A model generated the notes under the pieces. That model made no database searches. It was given only the letters and a program-made list of their open reading frames with translations, and had not been told where the DNA came from. From the NCBI GenBank assembly GCA_944387405.1, contig CALXET010000003.1:143758-207757 (forward strand): a stretch of 64,000 nt of DNA, given 5' to 3'. Source of the stretch: an uncultured Clostridia bacterium. Its GTDB lineage: Bacteria; Bacillota; Clostridia; TANB77; CAG-508. The position numbers were made by a program, and so were the translations under genes. Shown here piece after piece: positions 48,867-58,927 of this stretch; position 1 is the first letter of the stretch; every line of letters starts with the position of its first letter.

Positions 48867-51800
48867 TCATACTATTTCAACATTATTTTCTCCAACAATT
48901 TCTTTAAATACATTTACAATCTCTTCTGTTAAATAAATTGCTCCACATGGTTTTACTTGAGCTTTGTCTACAACTTGAACTTTAACATTAACTCTATCTC
49001 CACTAAAGAACTTAATTGCCCCTCTTAATCTTTTTTTAGTTTTTTCATCTAGTTCAGTAATATCTATTTGCATTGTTGTATATCTTTTCTTTTGTTTATC
49101 AATTTCGTTTTCATTAAATTCTCTTATGTCTCTTACTACAATTTTAGGAGTATCATCTTCTTTTATACTTAATCTTCCATCTATTAATACAATATTTTCA
49201 TCAAAAAGAATATTACTTACTCTATTATATACACTATCGAATATTATTATTTCTACACTTCCATATAAATCTTCTACCGTAACAAATGCCATAATTGTAT
49301 TCTTCTTAGTATATTTTTTCTTTACAGAGGTTATTGTTCCAGCATATTTTACATTTTGTCCATCTTTAAAATTTGTATCACTGTCGTTATCTCCTATTTT
49401 CTTTAAATCTAATGAATTAATATTAGTATTTTTAATAATACTTTCTCTAATTGAATCTAAAGGGTGTCCTGATATATATATTCCAAGCATTTCTTTTTCT
49501 TGTGATAATAATTCTTTTTTATCAAGTTCTGGTAAAACTGTATAATTATATTTTATCTCATCTGACGCCTCATCTGATACTATATCAAACATAGTAACCT
49601 GATTTGCTAGCGAATTTCTATTCTGATTATTTATTGTATCTAATATTCCCTCAAATGAAGCTAAAAGAGTGTTTCTTGTCTGTTCCATATCATCAAAACA
49701 ACCTGCTTTAATAAGAGATTCTACACACTTTTTATTTATATTTTCATCTTTAATTCTTTCACAAAAATCAGTAAAACTCTTAAACTCTCCATTCTTATTT
49801 CTTTCATTTACAATATTATTTACAGCAGCTACACCAACATTTTTAATACTTCCCATTCCAAATCTTATCTTTCCATCTTGTACTGTAAATTTAGTAAAAC
49901 TTTTATTTATATTTGGTTTTAATATTTCTATATTTAATCTTCTGCATTCATCAATATATACAGGAACTTTATCTAAATTTCCTAAAAAACTATTTAATGT
50001 TGCTGCCATAAATTCTTCAGTATAATAATATTTTAAATATGCTGTCCTATATGATACTACAGAATATGCAGCAGCATGTGATTTATTAAAAGCATATTTT
50101 GCAAACTCTGCCATCTCATCAAATATCTTATTAGCAGATGCTTCATCTATACCGTTTCTTATACACCCTGGAACTATAATATTTCCATTTTCATCTACTT
50201 GTCCATGAATAAAATATTCTCTTTCTTTTGCCATTACATCTAACTTCTTCTTACCCATTGCTCTTCTTACTAAGTCAGCTCTACCTAGAGAATATCCTGC
50301 TAAATCTCTTACTATTTGCATAACTTGTTCTTGGTATACCATACAACCATAAGTTACATTTAATATTGGTTCTAATGCTGGATGAGTATATTCATTATGT
50401 CCTGGATGTCTCTTTCCTTTAATATACCTCGGAATTTGATCCATCGGACCTGGTCTATATAATGAAACACCAGCAATTATATCTTCTAAACAATCTGGCT
50501 TTAATTCTTTCATGAAATTAGTCATTCCTGCACTTTCAAATTGGAATATTCCGCATGTATTTCCATCTGCCCATTGTTTATAAACATTTTGATCATTCAT
50601 ATCTTTGTCAAATTCAACATTTATGCCTCTTGTTTGTTTAACAAGTTTTATACAATCTGATATAACAGTTAAAGTTCTTAATCCTAAAAAGTCCATCTTT
50701 AAAAGTCCAAGTTCTTCTAAAAGAGTCATTGTATATTGTGTTGAAACATTACCATCGTTCAAATATAGGGGTACATACGTATCTACTGGATCTTTTGTAA
50801 TTACTACTCCACAAGCATGTGTTGAAGCTTGTCTTGGAAGTCCTTCAAGTGAAATTGCAATATCTATTAATTGTTTAACATTTGGATCTGAATCATACCA
50901 TTCTTTAAGCTCTCTATTTTGCTCTAAAGCTTTTTTAATCGTTATATGAATCTCCATTGGAATCATTTTTGCAAGTTTATCTGTCTCAGAATATGGAAAA
51001 TCTAACACTCTTCCTACGTCTCTAATTACCATTCTTGCTGCCATTGTACCAAATGTTATAATTTGTGATACATGATCATTTCCATATTTTCTCCCAACAT
51101 AATCTATAACCTCTTGTCTTCTTTCATAGCAAAAATCAACATCAAAATCTGGCATACTAATTCTTTCAGGATTTAAAAATCTTTCAAAAATTAAATTATA
51201 CTTTATAGGATCTATGTCAGTTATTCCAATACAATATGCTGCCATAGAACCTGCACCTGATCCTCTTCCTGGTCCTACTGGAATTCCTACACTTTTAGCA
51301 TAATTTATAAAATCCCAAACTATTAAGAAATAATCTACATATCCCATCTTTTCAATTATTGAGATTTCATACTCTAATCTATCTTTTAATTCTTTAGATG
51401 GATTTTCTCCATATCTATTTTTAAAACCATCATAGCAAAGTTTTTTAAAGTAATCTGCATGTGTTGCAAACTCTTCTGGAACATCATAATTTGGAAGTTT
51501 TGTAACACCAAATTCAAAATCATAATTACATTTTTCTGCTATTTTTACTGTATTTGATACAGCTTCTGGTATGTTTTCAAAATAATCAGACATCTCTTCT
51601 TTAGATTTTATATAAAATTCATCTGTCTCAAATCTCATTCTGTCTTCATCAGACATCTTTTTACCTGTCTGAATACATAATAAAACTTCATGATTATATG
51701 CATCTTCTCTTTTTAAATAATGTGCATCATTCGTGCCAACTAATGGAATATCTAATTTTCTTGCAAGTTCTATTAATTTTTGATTTACCATTATTTGCTC

Positions 51801-52340
51801 TCTTAGTCCATTATTTTGAATTTCTATATAATAATCATCTTTAAATAAATTTTTATACCATAAAGCAATCTCTTCAGCTTTTTCCATATTATTTTGAATA
51901 ATAGCTTGTGGCACCTCTCCCGCTAAACATGCACTTAGACATACTAATCCTTCACTATATTTTTCAAGAATTTCTTTATCTATTCTTGGTTTATAATAAA
52001 AGCCTTCAACAAAAGAAAGGGATACTAGTTTAATTAAATTTTGATACCCTTTTTTATTTTTTACTAACAATATTAAATGATTATATCCTGCATCAATTGA
52101 AGCTTCTTTATCAAATCTAGTTCTTCTTGCTACATAAACTTCACATCCAATAATAGGTTTTATATCATTTTTCTTGCATTCCTTATAAAATTCAACTGCA
52201 CCATACATTACTCCATGATCAGTAAGAGCAATAGCATTCATACCAAGTTCTTTTGCTCTTTTAGGTAAATCTTTAATTCTACTCATTCCATCTAATAAAC
52301 TATATTCACTGTGGACATGTAAGTGCACAAAATCAGACAT
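48867..52340 (-). CDS. dnaE: DNA polymerase III alpha subunit (DnaE type)
   Basis: The N-terminal PHP domain starts HLHVHSEYSLLDG. The polymerase core and the C-terminal OB domain are present. The likely start is the ATG at 52338-52340 (MSDFVHLH) with the RBS AAGGAGAAGG. The track ORF extends upstream to 52373. Confidence 0.9.
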   Translation of the reverse strand: MSDFVHLHVHSEYSLLDGMSRIKDLPKRAKELGMNAIALTDHGVMYGAVEFYKECKKNDIKPIIGCEVYVARRTRFDKEASIDAGYNHLILLVKNKKGYQNLIKLVSLSFVEGFYYKPRIDKEILEKYSEGLVCLSACLAGEVPQAIIQNNMEKAEEIALWYKNLFKDDYYIEIQNNGLREQIMVNQKLIELARKLDIPLVGTNDAHYLKREDAYNHEVLLCIQTGKKMSDEDRMRFETDEFYIKSKEEMSDYFENIPEAVSNTVKIAEKCNYDFEFGVTKLPNYDVPEEFATHADYFKKLCYDGFKNRYGENPSKELKDRLEYEISIIEKMGYVDYFLIVWDFINYAKSVGIPVGPGRGSGAGSMAAYCIGITDIDPIKYNLIFERFLNPERISMPDFDVDFCYERRQEVIDYVGRKYGNDHVSQIITFGTMAARMVIRDVGRVLDFPYSETDKLAKMIPMEIHITIKKALEQNRELKEWYDSDPNVKQLIDIAISLEGLPRQASTHACGVVITKDPVDTYVPLYLNDGNVSTQYTMTLLEELGLLKMDFLGLRTLTVISDCIKLVKQTRGINVEFDKDMNDQNVYKQWADGNTCGIFQFESAGMTNFMKELKPDCLEDIIAGVSLYRPGPMDQIPRYIKGKRHPGHNEYTHPALEPILNVTYGCMVYQEQVMQIVRDLAGYSLGRADLVRRAMGKKKLDVMAKEREYFIHGQVDENGNIIVPGCIRNGIDEASANKIFDEMAEFAKYAFNKSHAAAYSVVSYRTAYLKYYYTEEFMAATLNSFLGNLDKVPVYIDECRRLNIEILKPNINKSFTKFTVQDGKIRFGMGSIKNVGVAAVNNIVNERNKNGEFKSFTDFCERIKDENINKKCVESLIKAGCFDDMEQTRNTLLASFEGILDTINNQNRNSLANQVTMFDIVSDEASDEIKYNYTVLPELDKKELLSQEKEMLGIYISGHPLDSIRESIIKNTNINSLDLKKIGDNDSDTNFKDGQNVKYAGTITSVKKKYTKKNTIMAFVTVEDLYGSVEIIIFDSVYNRVSNILFDENIVLIDGRLSIKEDDTPKIVVRDIREFNENEIDKQKKRYTTMQIDITELDEKTKKRLRGAIKFFSGDRVNVKVQVVDKAQVKPCGAIYLTEEIVNVFKEIVGENNVEIV

Positions 52341-52426
52341 AATCCTTCTCCTTTTTTTACGTAAATATATCACACTATCCCCAATTTATCAACATAATTT
52401 GGAAAGTTACAAACACTTAATTTTTC

Positions 52427-52455
52427 TTGACAATGTTATATTTCTGTATTATACT
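52427..52455 (+). promoter_or_regulatory. Near-consensus sigma-A promoter on the plus strand (TTGACA, 17-nt spacer, TATACT)
   Basis: TTGACA at 52427-52432, a 17-nt spacer and TATACT at 52450-52455. The reverse complement of the same region contains TATAAT, which could serve dnaE on the minus strand. Confidence 0.45.
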
Positions 52456-52461
52456 TAAGCT

Positions 52462-52676
52462 CCAATAAGTAAGCCTTACCACATCTAAAAAAGGTGTTTA
52501 AATAAGGAGGCATTGCTTTTGTGATAGTTGCTTAGCAATCCCATGCTACACCCTGCGACTATTACAAGTATATATTTTTGAGAAATAATATTCTAGTTGA
52601 ATTTATTTTTTATAATATATATTTAGGAGCAATAAACCGACCTCTTGGATCTTTCCAAGAGGTCTTACCTTTTTAT
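52462..52676 (+). ncRNA. Candidate small RNA of about 215 nt, of unknown family
   Basis: It is bounded by the plus-strand promoter above and by an intrinsic terminator (gacctcttgga-tctt-tccaagaggtc, then TTACCTTTTTATT) at 52639-52676. There is no plus-strand CDS for more than 5 kb downstream. The interior contains a GGAGG element and several short hairpins (attgct...agcaat). Confidence 0.3.
52639..52676. terminator. Bidirectional intrinsic terminator (11-bp perfect stem) shared by the S4-domain gene (-) and the candidate sRNA (+)
   Basis: gacctcttgga / tccaagaggtc with a 4-nt loop. The T-run is on the plus side. The stop codon of the S4-domain gene is at 52680. Confidence 0.6.
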
Positions 52677-52679
52677 TAT

Positions 52680-52916
52680 TTATAATAATTTTATTATATC
52701 TGAAATATTTCCATTTTGAACTTTTGGAATCGATATAATCTCAAATTTAGATACTTTGTCTCCAAATTGTATTTCTACAACATCTCCAACTTTTACATCA
52801 AAACTTGGTTTAACAACCTTTCCATTAATTGATACTCTTCCCATATCTATAACCTCATTTGCAACACTTCTTCTTTTTATTACTCTACTCATTTTTAAAA
52901 ATTTGTCTATTCTCAT
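52680..52916 (-). CDS. S4-domain RNA-binding protein (Hsp15/YabO/RqcP-like)
   Basis: 78 aa. The S4 fold pattern is [49 protein letters not shown]. Confidence 0.6.
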
Positions 52917-52953
52917 ACATTCTCCTTTATTCTTTTAATAATAAATATTAAAT

Positions 52954-53694
52954 TTAATATTCAACCTTTACTAGATATAATCCATGTGGTGGCAAGGTCT
53001 TACCTGCTCTTTTTCTATCTTTTGATTCAATAATTTCAGGAATAGATTTTTCATCTATTTTTCCAAGTCCTACGTCTACTAGTGTCCCAGCAATTATTCT
53101 AACCATATTATATAAAAATCCGCTTCCCGTTAAAGAAATTATTATTCTATCTCCATCTTTTGTAACATCTGCATCAAAAATAGTTCTAACACTGCTTTTA
53201 CTACTTGTACCACTAGCTTTAAATCCTTTAAAATCATGTTCTCCTATAAAATGTTTTACTGCTTTTTTCATTTCTTCTACATTTAATTTTTGTGGCACAT
53301 GATATTCTAAGGCTCTATATATTGCTGTTCCAGTTTCTGAATTATTTATTACATATTTATATGTTTTTGATTTAACACAATATCTACTATGAAACCTTTC
53401 ATCGACTTCTTCTGCTGATTTTATTACAATACTCTTTTTTAATTTTGAATTAATTGCTATAGCAAATTTTTCTATTGGAATCTTATCATTATTAGTTACA
53501 AAATTTGCTGTCTGACCAAAACTATGTACACCTGCATCAGTTCTTCCAGAAGCTATTAAATTTACTTTTTCATCCCCTGTAACTTCGCAAATTGCCCTTT
53601 CAATTTCTCCTTGTATATTCAATTTATCTGGCTGTTTTTGCCATCCATTAAAATTCTTACCATCATATTCTATTATTAATTTAATATTTCTCAT
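52954..53694 (-). CDS. truA: tRNA pseudouridine(38-40) synthase
   Basis: 246 aa. The catalytic Asp context is IASGRTDAGVHSFGQ. The C-terminal LYNMVRIIAGTL is present. Confidence 0.9.
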   Translation of the reverse strand: MRNIKLIIEYDGKNFNGWQKQPDKLNIQGEIERAICEVTGDEKVNLIASGRTDAGVHSFGQTANFVTNNDKIPIEKFAIAINSKLKKSIVIKSAEEVDERFHSRYCVKSKTYKYVINNSETGTAIYRALEYHVPQKLNVEEMKKAVKHFIGEHDFKGFKASGTSSKSSVRTIFDADVTKDGDRIIISLTGSGFLYNMVRIIAGTLVDVGLGKIDEKSIPEIIESKDRKRAGKTLPPHGLYLVKVEY

Positions 53695-53870: not shown

Positions 53871-54287
53871 TTAATGAATAATTTTATCAATGTAGAAATT
53901 TTTTAAATCTATAATATATTCCACATTGACAGGAGTTGATATTGCGCACTCTCTGAGCACCGCTTCGAAAAAACCAGTTTCTGCAGTAATACTGAGTTTG
54001 TTTTTTTCTCTTCCAAAAAATCTTTTTCTCGGATGAAACTTCTTGTTTTCCGGAGCATCTGCATTCTGCATTATTGACAGAACCTCACTATAGACGACTT
54101 TCTTTACAATAGAAGGTTCTTTCTTCATCCTCTGATTCCAGTACTCCACTTCACCTAAGTCATCCATAGCAGTTGCTCTCCAGAATTCGAGATTTTCTAA
54201 ATGATTCCGGCTAACACATTCTGCAAAAGCAGTAGCTACATCTTCTAAAGACTTTCCTTCAAAGATTCTTCCTTCTCTTCTTTCCAT
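53871..54287 (-). CDS. Hypothetical protein with a GC-rich N-terminal two-thirds (last gene of the three-gene cassette)
   Basis: 138 aa. The RBS is AAGGAGAAGG. The first roughly 300 nt are about 40% GC, against roughly 25% around it, by eye, and the 3' end reverts to AT-rich. No recognisable motif. Confidence 0.5.
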   Translation of the reverse strand: MERREGRIFEGKSLEDVATAFAECVSRNHLENLEFWRATAMDDLGEVEYWNQRMKKEPSIVKKVVYSEVLSIMQNADAPENKKFHPRKRFFGREKNKLSITAETGFFEAVLRECAISTPVNVEYIIDLKNFYIDKIIH

Positions 54288-54369
54288 ACATCCTTCTCCT
54301 TACTAAAGCATCTCTGTGACATGATTATTATATCATCAATACAATTTTTAATCAATTATGTAAACAGCT

Positions 54370-55068
54370 TTACTTGCTTAATATCCAATCTACAATTACT
54401 TTTTTTATTTCATAGTATTCTTGTTCTGTAAATTGCATATTAGCAATACAAAATCTTCTACTTGATATGTGAGAACAAAACATACATTCATATAAATTAT
54501 TACAATCTTGAATAAAATATGAATTTACTATTTTAGCAGAACATATTACATTATAACTATTAGAACAAGCTGTGGAATCATCTACTCTAATACAATTTAT
54601 TGAATTTCCTGTTCTTTGAGAAGCAATTACTCCTTCACAATCTCCACATCCATCTGAGAAAATCATGTTTTTACATTTTCTGCAATCTGTTGATCTAAAT
54701 ATATTTTCCGAATCATATATAGTATCACTTTCAGATACATTTATTGAATTATATATTCTCTCTGTCGTTGTAAAATTAATTCTATTCCATATATTTATTA
54801 TGTCTTCTAAAGACTTTATTTCTCTTTTAGAAACCATCCACCCTTTCGCTTTATCATATTTTCTCATTGTATCTTGCTTAATATATTTTTTAGAATTTTC
54901 CATTTCAGACCATGTTATTTCTCCTGTCACGCTGTCTTTAACTTGTTTTGGGAGTTTAACATCAAAAGCAAATTTTTCCTCTAGTTCCTCAATTGTAAAT
55001 GGACATTCTCTTCCAAATATATTAAAAAATACCTTTGAAATTTCTTTTTCTACTTCTAATCTATTCAT
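54370..55068 (-). CDS. Cys-rich hypothetical protein (multiple CxxC pairs in the C-terminal half; possible metal-binding domain)
   Basis: 232 aa. The C-terminal roughly 100 residues contain 14 Cys, including CRKC, CGDC and CMFC. The start ATG overlaps the stop of the upstream ATPase gene by 8 nt (ATGAATAG). Confidence 0.5.
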   Translation of the reverse strand: MNRLEVEKEISKVFFNIFGRECPFTIEELEEKFAFDVKLPKQVKDSVTGEITWSEMENSKKYIKQDTMRKYDKAKGWMVSKREIKSLEDIINIWNRINFTTTERIYNSINVSESDTIYDSENIFRSTDCRKCKNMIFSDGCGDCEGVIASQRTGNSINCIRVDDSTACSNSYNVICSAKIVNSYFIQDCNNLYECMFCSHISSRRFCIANMQFTEQEYYEIKKVIVDWILSK

Positions 55069-56947
55069 ATCTTATTTTTCTCCTACTCGTAGATTGTGAT
55101 TCCATTAATTTTTTTATATCAAACTTATTATCACCAATTTTAAATCCTATATTTTTTAATAACTTATTTTTTCTGTTATCATCTTTAGCATCTGGCTTCA
55201 TTAATATTTGATTTTTATTTTTGGGGATTGGTTTAAAATCTATTGTTCTAGCTCTAAATGCAGGAATAAGAACTCCATTTTTAGTTATTCTTACTATACA
55301 ATCTCTATTTGGTAGTTCTGTTAAAAGTTTAATCCTATTATGATATGTATTTTTTACCGCCATTTCCATTTGTAATTGATTATTTAAAATCATAGCATCT
55401 TCTCTAGAAATTCTAAATGAATAATAATTCATTACATTTGAAAAAATCGCATCTTGTAAATCTTCACTTATTTGTCCAAAATATTGCCCTGCAAGTATTA
55501 TTGACAAATTATATTTTCTAGCTTCAGAAAGTAAATTTTTAAGTATTGGATTTTCTACTACAGCAACTTCATCAATTATTAAAATTAAATGTTCTAAAAA
55601 AGCATGTCTTTGAACTAATTGAAATATTACTCCCATTATAAGTCCCGCTATTGTTTTAGTAACTTTTTCTCCAAGTTCTGCTTGATTTAAAGAAAATATA
55701 GTTAAAAAATTATTTCTAATCTCATTTTCAATGTTTTTTTCATTTTTTTCTCTAAAGCATGGCAACATTTGCATTTCATCAATAAGAGCAATTATCGGAG
55801 ATATAGCTTCAGTATATGAATTTGTCTTTATCTCATTAAAATCAGAACCAAAAAACTCTTTGATATGTGATTCTACATCATCAGATTCTCTTAACAATTT
55901 ATTTCTAAATTCAGTATCTATTATTAATTTTCTTAAATTTTCAAAATCTAATTTCTCCTTTTTAAGTAATAAATAAATACTATGTCTTAACACTCTTTCA
56001 AGCTTTGAATTAAATTCTTCTCCAAACACACTTTTTAATACAGTAAGTAATATTTCTGTTCCACTACTTACATTTTTATTTGAATTAATTAGGAGGTCAA
56101 CACTACTAGATTTTTTCTTCATATCAATTACTTGTGTTTCATCCAATCCACCTATATCATTTTCTATTGAACTATGTGGATCTATCATCACAATTTTGTA
56201 ATCTGCTTTAAAATTTTTATTATCATAAATATTTTTTATCATTTGCGCTATAAGTTTAGATTTTCCAGTTCCACTTCCACCTACTATCAATGAATGTTTA
56301 TCAAAATCATAATTTTCAATATTTAAAAAATATTTATTCTGTGAATATGGAAAAGTATTTACTTCTAGCATATTGTCTTTCTTTTCATCTGTTTCAAACA
56401 TATGTATAGATTTTTGAATTTGCAAATATTTACTTCCTTCTTTTACATATGAAAATCTAGTATGCTTTGAAAAATCAACACTAAGTTGAATATGAGGAAT
56501 AAAAAATATAGTTCTTCCTTTTGATTTATTCCCCCTTTCATGTTCAAAATATAATTTAGCCTTAGTAAAATAATTAGTTTTAGAAAAAGATGTAAAAGTA
56601 ATTTCAACTTGCTTTAAAAACTGTCTATATTTTGATTCATTTCTATCATAAATATCTACCAAGTTGTTTTCATATTTTCTTACTAAATATAAATATTCTA
56701 TTAAAGTCTTTTCTCTCTTAAAAGAATCTATTTTTTTTATCAGAAAACTACCTGAACAACTAAGAACAGTAGGAAGTTTTTTTCTAGATACTATATAATA
56801 TTTAATTACACTTCTTTCGATTTTTACATATAACTTCCAACTTCTAAAAAATCCATTTAGATTTGAAATCTCTAATAAAAATTTTAACCATTCATTTTCA
56901 TCTATATAGTCAGAAGTTAAATATATTTCATACATATATCTCTTCAT
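55061..56947 (-). CDS. P-loop NTPase of the FtsK/HerA/TraG (AAA-like, DUF87-type) superfamily with an uncharacterised N-terminal domain of about 220 aa
   Basis: 628 aa. The Walker A is SLIVGGSGTGKSKLI (about residues 220-234). The Walker B is HLILIIDEVAVVEN. No TM segments. Confidence 0.6.
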   Translation of the reverse strand: MKRYMYEIYLTSDYIDENEWLKFLLEISNLNGFFRSWKLYVKIERSVIKYYIVSRKKLPTVLSCSGSFLIKKIDSFKREKTLIEYLYLVRKYENNLVDIYDRNESKYRQFLKQVEITFTSFSKTNYFTKAKLYFEHERGNKSKGRTIFFIPHIQLSVDFSKHTRFSYVKEGSKYLQIQKSIHMFETDEKKDNMLEVNTFPYSQNKYFLNIENYDFDKHSLIVGGSGTGKSKLIAQMIKNIYDNKNFKADYKIVMIDPHSSIENDIGGLDETQVIDMKKKSSSVDLLINSNKNVSSGTEILLTVLKSVFGEEFNSKLERVLRHSIYLLLKKEKLDFENLRKLIIDTEFRNKLLRESDDVESHIKEFFGSDFNEIKTNSYTEAISPIIALIDEMQMLPCFREKNEKNIENEIRNNFLTIFSLNQAELGEKVTKTIAGLIMGVIFQLVQRHAFLEHLILIIDEVAVVENPILKNLLSEARKYNLSIILAGQYFGQISEDLQDAIFSNVMNYYSFRISREDAMILNNQLQMEMAVKNTYHNRIKLLTELPNRDCIVRITKNGVLIPAFRARTIDFKPIPKNKNQILMKPDAKDDNRKNKLLKNIGFKIGDNKFDIKKLMESQSTSRRKIRYE

Positions 56948-58060: not shown

Positions 58061-58927
58061 ATGGCTATCAAGTTAATCGCAAGCGATTTAGATGGTACTA
58101 TTATAGATGAACATAATTTTATATCTCCTAGTAATCTAAACGCTATTAAAGATATAAATACTAAAAAAATTAACTTTGCTGTTTGCACTGGAAAGTCATA
58201 TTCTATCGGCAAATCTCTATGTAATAATTTTAATGCTACCTATGGAGTATTTGGAAACGGTTCTCAAATTGTTGATCTTACTACTGGGAAGTCTATATAT
58301 AAACATGTCATTCCAAATGATGATATAAAACTTTGTATTGATATTGCTGAAAAATATAATTTACATGTACATGCATATACTGATAAAGAAATTATAACAA
58401 CAAACTTAAAATATATGGATCTTAGAAATTATAAATTAAATCCTACTTCTGGATCAAAATTTTTAATTACAGATAATTTATATAAATGTATTTTAGATAA
58501 TAATTTAGAAATACTTCAACTTATAATCTCTAGTGATAATCATTTAAATATTGTAAGAAGTGAAATAGAAGATTTGTCAAACTTATCTATTACTACATTT
58601 TCTAAATTTGGCAAATATAAAGATATGATAATAAATAAAGAATATGAATATTTATCTATTGCTCCTCAGAATACAAATAAAGAAGAAGCATTATCATTTT
58701 TAAAAAAATATCTGCATTTATCTAATGATGAAGTTATGGCTGTGGGAGATAATTTAAATGATTTAGAAATGCTAAAAAATTCTGGAATAAGTATTGCTGT
58801 CGCAAACGCTTATGATGAAGTTAAACAAATTGCAAAATATACTACTCAAAAAGATGTTTCTCAAGGAGCTTTTGCTGAAGCTGTTTATAAATTTATTGAT
58901 TTTGATAATCCAAATATTACTACATAA
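58061..58927 (+). CDS. Cof-type HAD-IIB family phosphatase
   Basis: 288 aa. HAD motif I is LIASDLDGTIID, motif II is AVCTGKS and motifs III/IV are GDNLNDLEMLKNSGISIAVANA. Confidence 0.8.
   Translation: MAIKLIASDLDGTIIDEHNFISPSNLNAIKDINTKKINFAVCTGKSYSIGKSLCNNFNATYGVFGNGSQIVDLTTGKSIYKHVIPNDDIKLCIDIAEKYNLHVHAYTDKEIITTNLKYMDLRNYKLNPTSGSKFLITDNLYKCILDNNLEILQLIISSDNHLNIVRSEIEDLSNLSITTFSKFGKYKDMIINKEYEYLSIAPQNTNKEEALSFLKKYLHLSNDEVMAVGDNLNDLEMLKNSGISIAVANAYDEVKQIAKYTTQKDVSQGAFAEAVYKFIDFDNPNITT

Follow-up and report, generated by a model that had tools for sequence, protein, structure and literature searches.

The Locus Between dnaE and an S4-Domain Gene

The window, i.e., the whole 64-kb stretch of DNA that was analysed, has a GC content of 29%. 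The candidate sRNA is found on its plus strand, in a gap of 339 bp that separates dnaE from a short gene encoding an S4-domain protein. The gap and its flanking genes contain the following features:

48867-52340, minus strand: dnaE, with the Pfam domains PHP and DNA_pol3_alpha and related domains
52392-52364, minus strand: dnaE promoter TTGATA-17-(TG)TATATT, conserved in all lineages, including those lacking the sRNA
52427-52432, plus strand: -35 hexamer TTGACA of the sRNA promoter, invariant in 8/8 lineages
52450-52455, plus strand: -10 hexamer TATACT of the sRNA promoter, invariant in 8/8 lineages
52462-52676, plus strand: predicted sRNA transcript of about 215 nt, its ends placed from the promoter and the terminator
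52639-52676, plus strand: intrinsic terminator, an 11-bp stem and the U-tract UUACCUUUUUAU
52680-52916, minus strand: S4-domain gene, 78 aa, convergent with the sRNA

The sequence-only reading had proposed a plus-strand sRNA of about 215 nt at this site, with no sizeable ORF inside it and no plus-strand coding sequence for more than 5 kb beyond it. All three parts of this proposal are supported. The promoter and the terminator delimit a unit that has homologs in 7 other lineages, with the predicted 5′ end about 7 nt past the -10 hexamer and the predicted 3′ end within the U-tract. The longest ORF inside the sRNA stretch is 35 aa and none is 36 aa or longer, while the first credible coding sequence on the plus strand 3′ of the sRNA begins at 58061; the plus-strand ORFs before this position are short, or lie antisense within minus-strand genes. 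A cis-regulatory leader or riboswitch was rejected, since the RNA runs into a terminator opposite the 3′ end of the S4 gene and the next plus-strand coding sequence is the distant one at 58061. The 64-kb window contains no second copy of the sRNA.

Promoters and Terminator

The sRNA promoter, TTGACA-17-TATACT at 52427-52455 on the plus strand, is present as described earlier and matches the consensus at 11 of 12 positions. As 13 sites in the window reach 11 or more of the 12 matches, compared to 8.1 ± 2.8 in Markov-1 random sequence, the promoter is unremarkable when considered alone, and it is the relatives that settle the question. The spacer is 17 nt in every lineage; its -35-proximal half varies, while the -10-proximal half, ATTTC(T/C)GTAT, is conserved. 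The DNA upstream of the promoter also varies between lineages while the hexamers stay fixed.

The promoters of the sRNA and of dnaE are found back to back with 34 bp between their -35 boxes. It had been suggested that a TATAAT, read from the opposite strand at the sRNA -10 region, could drive dnaE. This hexamer has no -35 partner, and the dnaE promoter is found at 52392-52364, so the suggestion was abandoned. What had been considered a possible bidirectional promoter consists of two separate elements placed back to back.

The terminator stem GACCTCTTGGA/TCCAAGAGGTC comprises 11 perfect base pairs and a 4-nt loop (52639-52664) and is followed by TTACCTTTTTAT on the plus strand, in agreement with the earlier description of a perfect 11-bp stem with a plus-strand U-run. 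Two terminator-like sites were counted, both from this one hairpin read on the two strands, against 0.1 expected from shuffles. On the minus strand the hairpin lies 15 nt past the stop codon of the S4 gene, and it is indeed common to the two convergent genes, as had been claimed. Across the lineages 100% of the terminator cells are paired, and 3 pairs are changed on both sides. The distance from the terminator to the RNA body is constant, while that to the S4 stop codon ranges from 15 to about 90 nt, indicating that it is in the first place the terminator of the sRNA, which S4 uses as well.

In some lineages an extra 40-90 bp separates the shared hairpin from the stop codon of S4 (L108:2738-2780, L109:2738-2797, and L091:2738-2805). 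This insert is AT-rich and internally repetitive, with for instance TTATTATTCATTTTTAT units, of which L109 contains one copy more than L108.

Predicted Transcript and Fold

The predicted fold of the plus strand has a free energy of -69.7 kcal/mol and a z-score of -8.9, while the z-score of the minus strand is -3.8. The plus-strand fold as modelled is far beyond chance. The predicted consensus fold is a 5′ hairpin followed by a three-way junction, whose apical arm bears a C-rich block, and then by the terminator. Its elements are:

52456-52473, plus strand: A-rich single-stranded 5′ leader UAAGCUCYAMUAAGWAAR, conserved in alignments A1 and A2
52474-52507, plus strand: P1 (tentative), CCUUA at 52474-52478 with UAAGG at 52503-52507, enclosing P0
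52481-52497, plus strand: P0, the 5′ hairpin, ACAUCU/AGGUGU, 6 bp
52504-52510, plus strand: AAGGAGG element, which is carried as AAGGAGG by three lineages
52512-52633, plus strand: three-way junction domain with arms P3 and P4, closed by P2 (52512-52520 with 52625-52633)
52521-52565, plus strand: P3 arm (52521-52531 with 52555-52565), which closes the apical module
52534-52553, plus strand: invariant 20-nt module AGCAAUCCCAUGCUACACCC, identical in 14 distinct sequences apart from one insertion
52568-52622, plus strand: P4, a long, variable, AU-rich hairpin arm with 10 pairs changed on both sides (helix 8)

Between lineages, P0 displays exchanges of A-U for C-G and of U-A for C-G, with 2 pairs changed on both sides. 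Three pairs are changed on both sides in P2 (UUU/AGG, CCC/GGG, and UUUU/AAAA) and five in P3, where 98.6 and 90.2% of the cells are paired in helices 5 and 6, respectively. P1 is less certain. Its AAGG has an alternative partner in the CCUUUUU of the 3′ tail, and both pairings are possible in most lineages. As the partners are nearly invariant, covariation cannot choose between the 5′ and the 3′ CCUU, and the covariation counts for P1 are unreliable because the alignment is shifted in some rows.

The AAGGAGG element that had been pointed out inside the RNA is present at 52504-52510 on the plus strand. A role as a Shine-Dalgarno sequence was rejected for lack of conservation, since other lineages have GGAAGGA, AAGAGGA, or CAAGGUG at this place. 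All that persists of the element across lineages is the potential for CCUU/AAGG pairing.

Distribution in Relatives

Relatives were reached via graded S4 homologs and their contigs; exact copies of the S4 protein itself are found on many metagenome contigs. Homologs of the sRNA were found at the same position between the S4 gene and dnaE in 7 further lineages of uncultured gut Clostridia. The S4 identities to the window are:

L108-110: 97%
L091/092: 94%
L093/094/106/107: 88%
L103-105: 86%
L114-116: 81%
L117-121: 79%

Within these groups, substitutions separate L093 from L094 and L114 from L115. Three other lineages that have kept the S4-dnaE synteny lack the sRNA (L096-098/L111-112; L099-101/L113), which indicates that it is dispensable there. 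In L099-101 and L113 only a spacer of 119-147 bp is found at the locus.

The L096-098 and L111-112 group, whose S4 proteins are 83-85% identical to that of the window, carries a near-consensus TTGACA-17-TATAAT promoter at the same place, followed by a different RNA of about 95 nt (L096:2790-2890, minus strand). This RNA has a 5′ hairpin, a C/U-rich loop, its own terminator, and a fold z-score of -3.4; it contains neither the three-way junction nor the invariant module. In L096 and L111 the S4 gene does not share the terminator of the short RNA but ends at a hairpin of its own. Either one sRNA gene has replaced another at a fixed locus, or the short RNA is derived by deletion. That neighbouring lineages have a different short RNA, or none, illustrates how fast sRNA genes may be replaced at a fixed site.

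More distant genomes were also searched. The 80 dnaE loci listed, from GTDB species representatives, contain no intergenic homolog by blastn or by the covariance model R1 described below; the dnaE N-termini at these loci are at most 77% identical, and the S4-dnaE synteny is not kept. Viral contigs and phage and plasmid collections gave no match to the sRNA, which thus is not an obvious mobile-element RNA. The putative sRNA family is confined to a narrow group of gut Clostridia that are uncultured and low in GC.

A metagenome scan using the invariant 20-mer gave one match, located between genes of a high-GC organism (L102, FXBF010000232.1). It was rejected as a homolog, as R1 matches the 20-mer only and the fold z-score is -0.55. 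About one chance match to a 20-mer would be expected by a rough estimate that assumes a collection of about 1e12 bases. The strand opposite the 20-mer carries a TTGACA-17-TATACT promoter and a terminator-like hairpin (L102:5336-5450). This suggests that an unrelated sRNA, about 105 nt long, would hold the exact complement of the module there, probably by coincidence.

Covariation and the Invariant Module

The covariance model R1 comprises 172 positions, with the leader and the terminator left out, and its match in the window covers 52472-52637 with a score of 163 bits. Alignment A4 contains 14 distinct sequences, from about 8 independent lineages, that were realigned by R1. The A4 counts lean toward the model structure, as the alignment was fitted to it, and it is with this leaning that 86.9% of the cells form standard pairs (37-46% in slid controls), 24 pairs are changed on both sides (8-12 in the controls), and the covariation score is 0.332 (0.10-0.13 in the controls). 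The observed percentage of paired cells and the covariation score are reached by none of 500 shuffles. The modelled helices that covary are P0, P2, P3, and P4, while P1 and P3a give no usable support. Three SNPs within species fall in stems, and all three keep the pairing (U·G to C-G in P0, G-C to G·U in P3, and U-A to U·G in P4).

When it comes to the strand, the alignment has 92 G·U cells and 19 A·C cells, and 86.9% of the cells are paired when read on the plus strand compared to 77.7% on the minus strand. The excess of G·U over A·C favours the plus strand. The asymmetry in minimum free energy points to the plus strand in 5 of 7 lineages and to the minus strand in L114 and L117.

The module AGCAAUCCCAUGCUACACCC at the tip of the P3 arm is predicted to consist of a mini-hairpin, P3a (AGCA/UGCU), with the loop AUCCCA, followed by an unpaired ACACCC. 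P3a (helix 7) has 4 base pairs that never vary. The UCCCA of the hairpin loop and the ACACCC of the internal loop are predicted to be unpaired in every lineage. In two lineages (L114-L117) a 19-nt hairpin is inserted in the module after AGCAAU; UCCCAUGCUACACCC is intact in these and is predicted to be unpaired. Otherwise the module has no substitutions in any lineage. For comparison, the identity of the sRNA to the window copy is 86, 87, 70, 74, 60, and 55% in six lineages (range 55-87%), and the third-codon-position identity to the window is 87-59% for S4 and 78-68% for dnaE. The RNA has thus diverged roughly like synonymous positions while the module has remained unsubstituted, which argues for selection on both the fold and the module. 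From its conservation the predicted module marks a functional site.

Examination of the relatives for conservation and structure, by which the original candidate could have fallen, yielded an invariant promoter, covarying helices, and a covarying terminator in 7 other lineages. A candidate proposed from raw sequence has in this way gained comparative support through the conservation of its promoter, the covariation of several helices in its fold, and a 20-nt block free of substitutions. The conserved anatomy and the covariation, together with the lack of a conserved ORF, make it highly probable that the locus encodes a real structured RNA gene.

Comparison With Known RNA Families

To our knowledge, almost no RNA regulators have been described from the uncultured low-GC gut Clostridia with small genomes. 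A cmscan search of the whole window against Rfam 15 gave no matches at the gathering score. At E <= 10, the region 52300-52750 gave two noise matches only, RefA9 (24 bits, at the terminator) and mir-186, and homologs from 5 other loci gave only sub-threshold matches of the terminator type. ARAGORN found no tRNA or tmRNA genes in 52000-53000. The sequence-only reading had seen no match to 6S, SRP, tmRNA, or RNase P RNA, and the Rfam 15 and ARAGORN searches bear this out.

6S RNA forms a rod-like fold with paired 5′ and 3′ ends and a large central bubble. The candidate sRNA resembles it in its size (about 200 nt), in being highly structured, and in having the promoter features of an abundant RNA. 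However, it has a three-way junction, a separate 5′ hairpin, and an intrinsic terminator, and cmscan gave no match between the sRNA and 6S even at E <= 10.

Closer parallels are found among the C-rich regulatory RNAs of the Firmicutes. The Rsa RNAs of S. aureus are characterised by a 5′ hairpin, a classical terminator, and UCCC motifs left unpaired where conservation is highest, and they block ribosome binding at Shine-Dalgarno sequences (PMC2790875). LhrC of Listeria is another precedent for a regulatory sRNA with UCCC or C-rich motifs (PMC4132741). Like RsaE/RoxS, the other Rsa RNAs, RNAIII, and LhrC, the candidate is a stand-alone gene with a sigma-70-type promoter, an intrinsic terminator, and a 5′ hairpin. 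Its most conserved part is predicted to expose UCCCA and CACCC as single strands, as in the UCCC sRNAs of Firmicutes, and its helices vary in sequence while keeping their structure, as do those of the Rsa RNAs (PMC2790875). It differs from RsaE in being about twice as long and in having a three-way junction and an invariant block of 20 nt. RsaE, RNAIII, and LhrC display no homology to the sRNA, either in sequence or by covariance model.

Unnamed candidate structured RNAs have been reported from intergenic regions of the human microbiome (Fremin and Bhatt, 2021; PMC8040213). As far as the covered part of that source goes, these candidates and the sRNA alike are intergenic motifs that covary, stem from uncultured gut bacteria, and have been assigned no function. 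A search of the first 200 of the paper's 408 supplementary files, and of the searchable literature, did not reveal the invariant motif, and the sRNA may be identical to one of these candidates.

Taken by its sequence and anatomy, the sRNA is a new family of a familiar kind that is without a model in Rfam. For now it joins the other orphan families, and specialists will not find it surprising.

Possible Functions of the sRNA

The best explanation of the locus as a whole is a stand-alone structured RNA gene of about 215 nt that may act by base-pairing in trans, a reading to which we give slightly less than an even chance. A sigma-70-type promoter and an intrinsic terminator of its own would give rise to the structured transcript, in which the P3 arm would expose UCCCA and ACACCC as single strands. 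This C-rich module could then pair with G-rich ribosome-binding regions of at least one mRNA and block the initiation of translation, as in RsaE/RoxS, RNAIII, and LhrC, while the 5′ hairpin, the junction, and the terminator would serve as a stabilising scaffold. By analogy to these RNAs, an action in trans through pairing of the module with ribosome-binding regions is a reasonable but tentative proposal.

A search for targets was carried out within the 64-kb window, which makes up about 3% of an assumed genome of 1.8-2 Mb. Two near-complements of the module were found there, both inside ORFs, and the duplex energies of the module against 44 start regions in the window were no better than those of shuffled seeds. 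An invariant block of 20 nt is longer than a seed usually has to be and could likewise be a binding site for a protein.

Owing to the length of this block, a role in protein binding stays a serious rival, even if we consider it somewhat unlikely. The RNA would then sequester, deliver, or scaffold a partner and not pair with mRNA, with the module on its three-way junction recognised by a conserved protein or by the ribosome. The invariance, which includes the never-varying 4 bp of P3a, covers more nucleotides than most seeds do; the fold is more elaborate than one expects of a base-pairing sRNA; and the window contains no mRNA target that could be found. The convergent neighbour is moreover always a gene for an RNA-binding S4-domain protein, but the S4-dnaE synteny persists in lineages without the sRNA, so that this neighbourhood is not specific to it. 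Nor does the RNA match any protein-binding family in Rfam (6S, SRP, CsrB-type, Y RNA, OLE, raiA, and others), and its narrow and patchy distribution would be unusual for a core RNP. The more specific proposal that the sRNA is a subunit or decoy of an unrecognised RNP in small-genome gut Clostridia, in which AGCAAUCCCAUGCUACACCC docks a protein or the ribosome, is doubtful; if true, it would define a new class of structured non-coding RNA.

It is less probable still that the locus works mainly as a device in cis, where the RNA product itself would matter little. Strong convergent transcription and antisense RNA would then block read-through from the truA-S4 operon into dnaE, or divergent transcription would tune the dnaE promoter. 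The geometry is suitable for this, as the sRNA is wholly antisense to any transcript reading from S4 into dnaE, its terminator is bidirectional, and 34 bp separate its promoter from the -35 box of dnaE. L096, L111, and L112 keep a promoter at this place with another, shorter RNA, but L099, L100, and L113 are without any such element. The covariation of P0, P2, P3, and P4 and the invariant unpaired module further point to selection on the folded RNA and not merely on its transcription, which makes a purely cis-acting role less likely.

A small protein, or a dual function, has very little in its favour. The invariant block contains a conserved AUG (MLHPA...) and three lineages have the AAGGAGG, from which translation might be led, but no Shine-Dalgarno sequence precedes the AUG, the peptides following MLHPA differ in sequence and in length (12, 13, 15, and >50 aa by hand translation), the ORF after AAGGAGG in the window is of 4 codons when read by eye and the AAGGAGG is itself not conserved, and the indels between lineages have lengths that are not divisible by three. 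The small-ORF reading was rejected, as no ORF is conserved and both length and sequence differ between lineages. It is equally hard to believe that there is no RNA gene at all and that a conserved DNA element, the S4 terminator, and a chance promoter match make up the locus: about 8 near-consensus promoters per window are expected by chance in DNA this rich in AT, but the hexamers and their spacing are invariant in 8 lineages while neighbouring bases vary, the compensatory changes and the G·U excess indicate an RNA from the plus strand, and the hairpin keeps its distance to the RNA body while that to the S4 stop codon ranges from 15 to about 90 nt. The preferred reading of the locus is still the stand-alone structured RNA, which may base-pair in trans.

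Neighbouring Genes and dnaE in the Relatives

Three genes lie upstream of truA (window 53871-56947, minus strand). One encodes a 628-aa ATPase of the HerA/DUF87 type, with weak TrwB/TraG-like P-loop matches, and the other two, ORFs of 232 and 138 aa, have no match in Pfam. The ATPase and an ORF of 232-234 aa are found in the same order in all lineages with sufficient flank (L091, L096-L101, and L108). The third ORF (137-139 aa) was called only in the window group, L091, L093, and L106-L110, and is missing in L096-L101.

The dnaE gene of the window is intact, while in several relatives a +1 frameshift at a CGG codon is needed to read it. Two sites are found. At site A (L091 at about 4237, L093 at about 4175, L103 at about 1683, L104, L106, and L107) the relatives have GCU-CGG-N where the window has GCA-GGU, and at site B (L096 and L097 at about 3593, L099 at about 3487, L100, L101, and L113) they have GUC/GUU-CGG-A where the window has GUU-GGC. 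If the C of CGG is dropped, glycine and the conserved DnaE sequence are restored. The same insertion is present in independent assemblies (ENA, Logan, and NCBI) and is therefore not an assembly error. Judged from these reading frames, the pattern resembles programmed +1 ribosomal frameshifting at a rare arginine codon in an essential gene, with two sites of origin.
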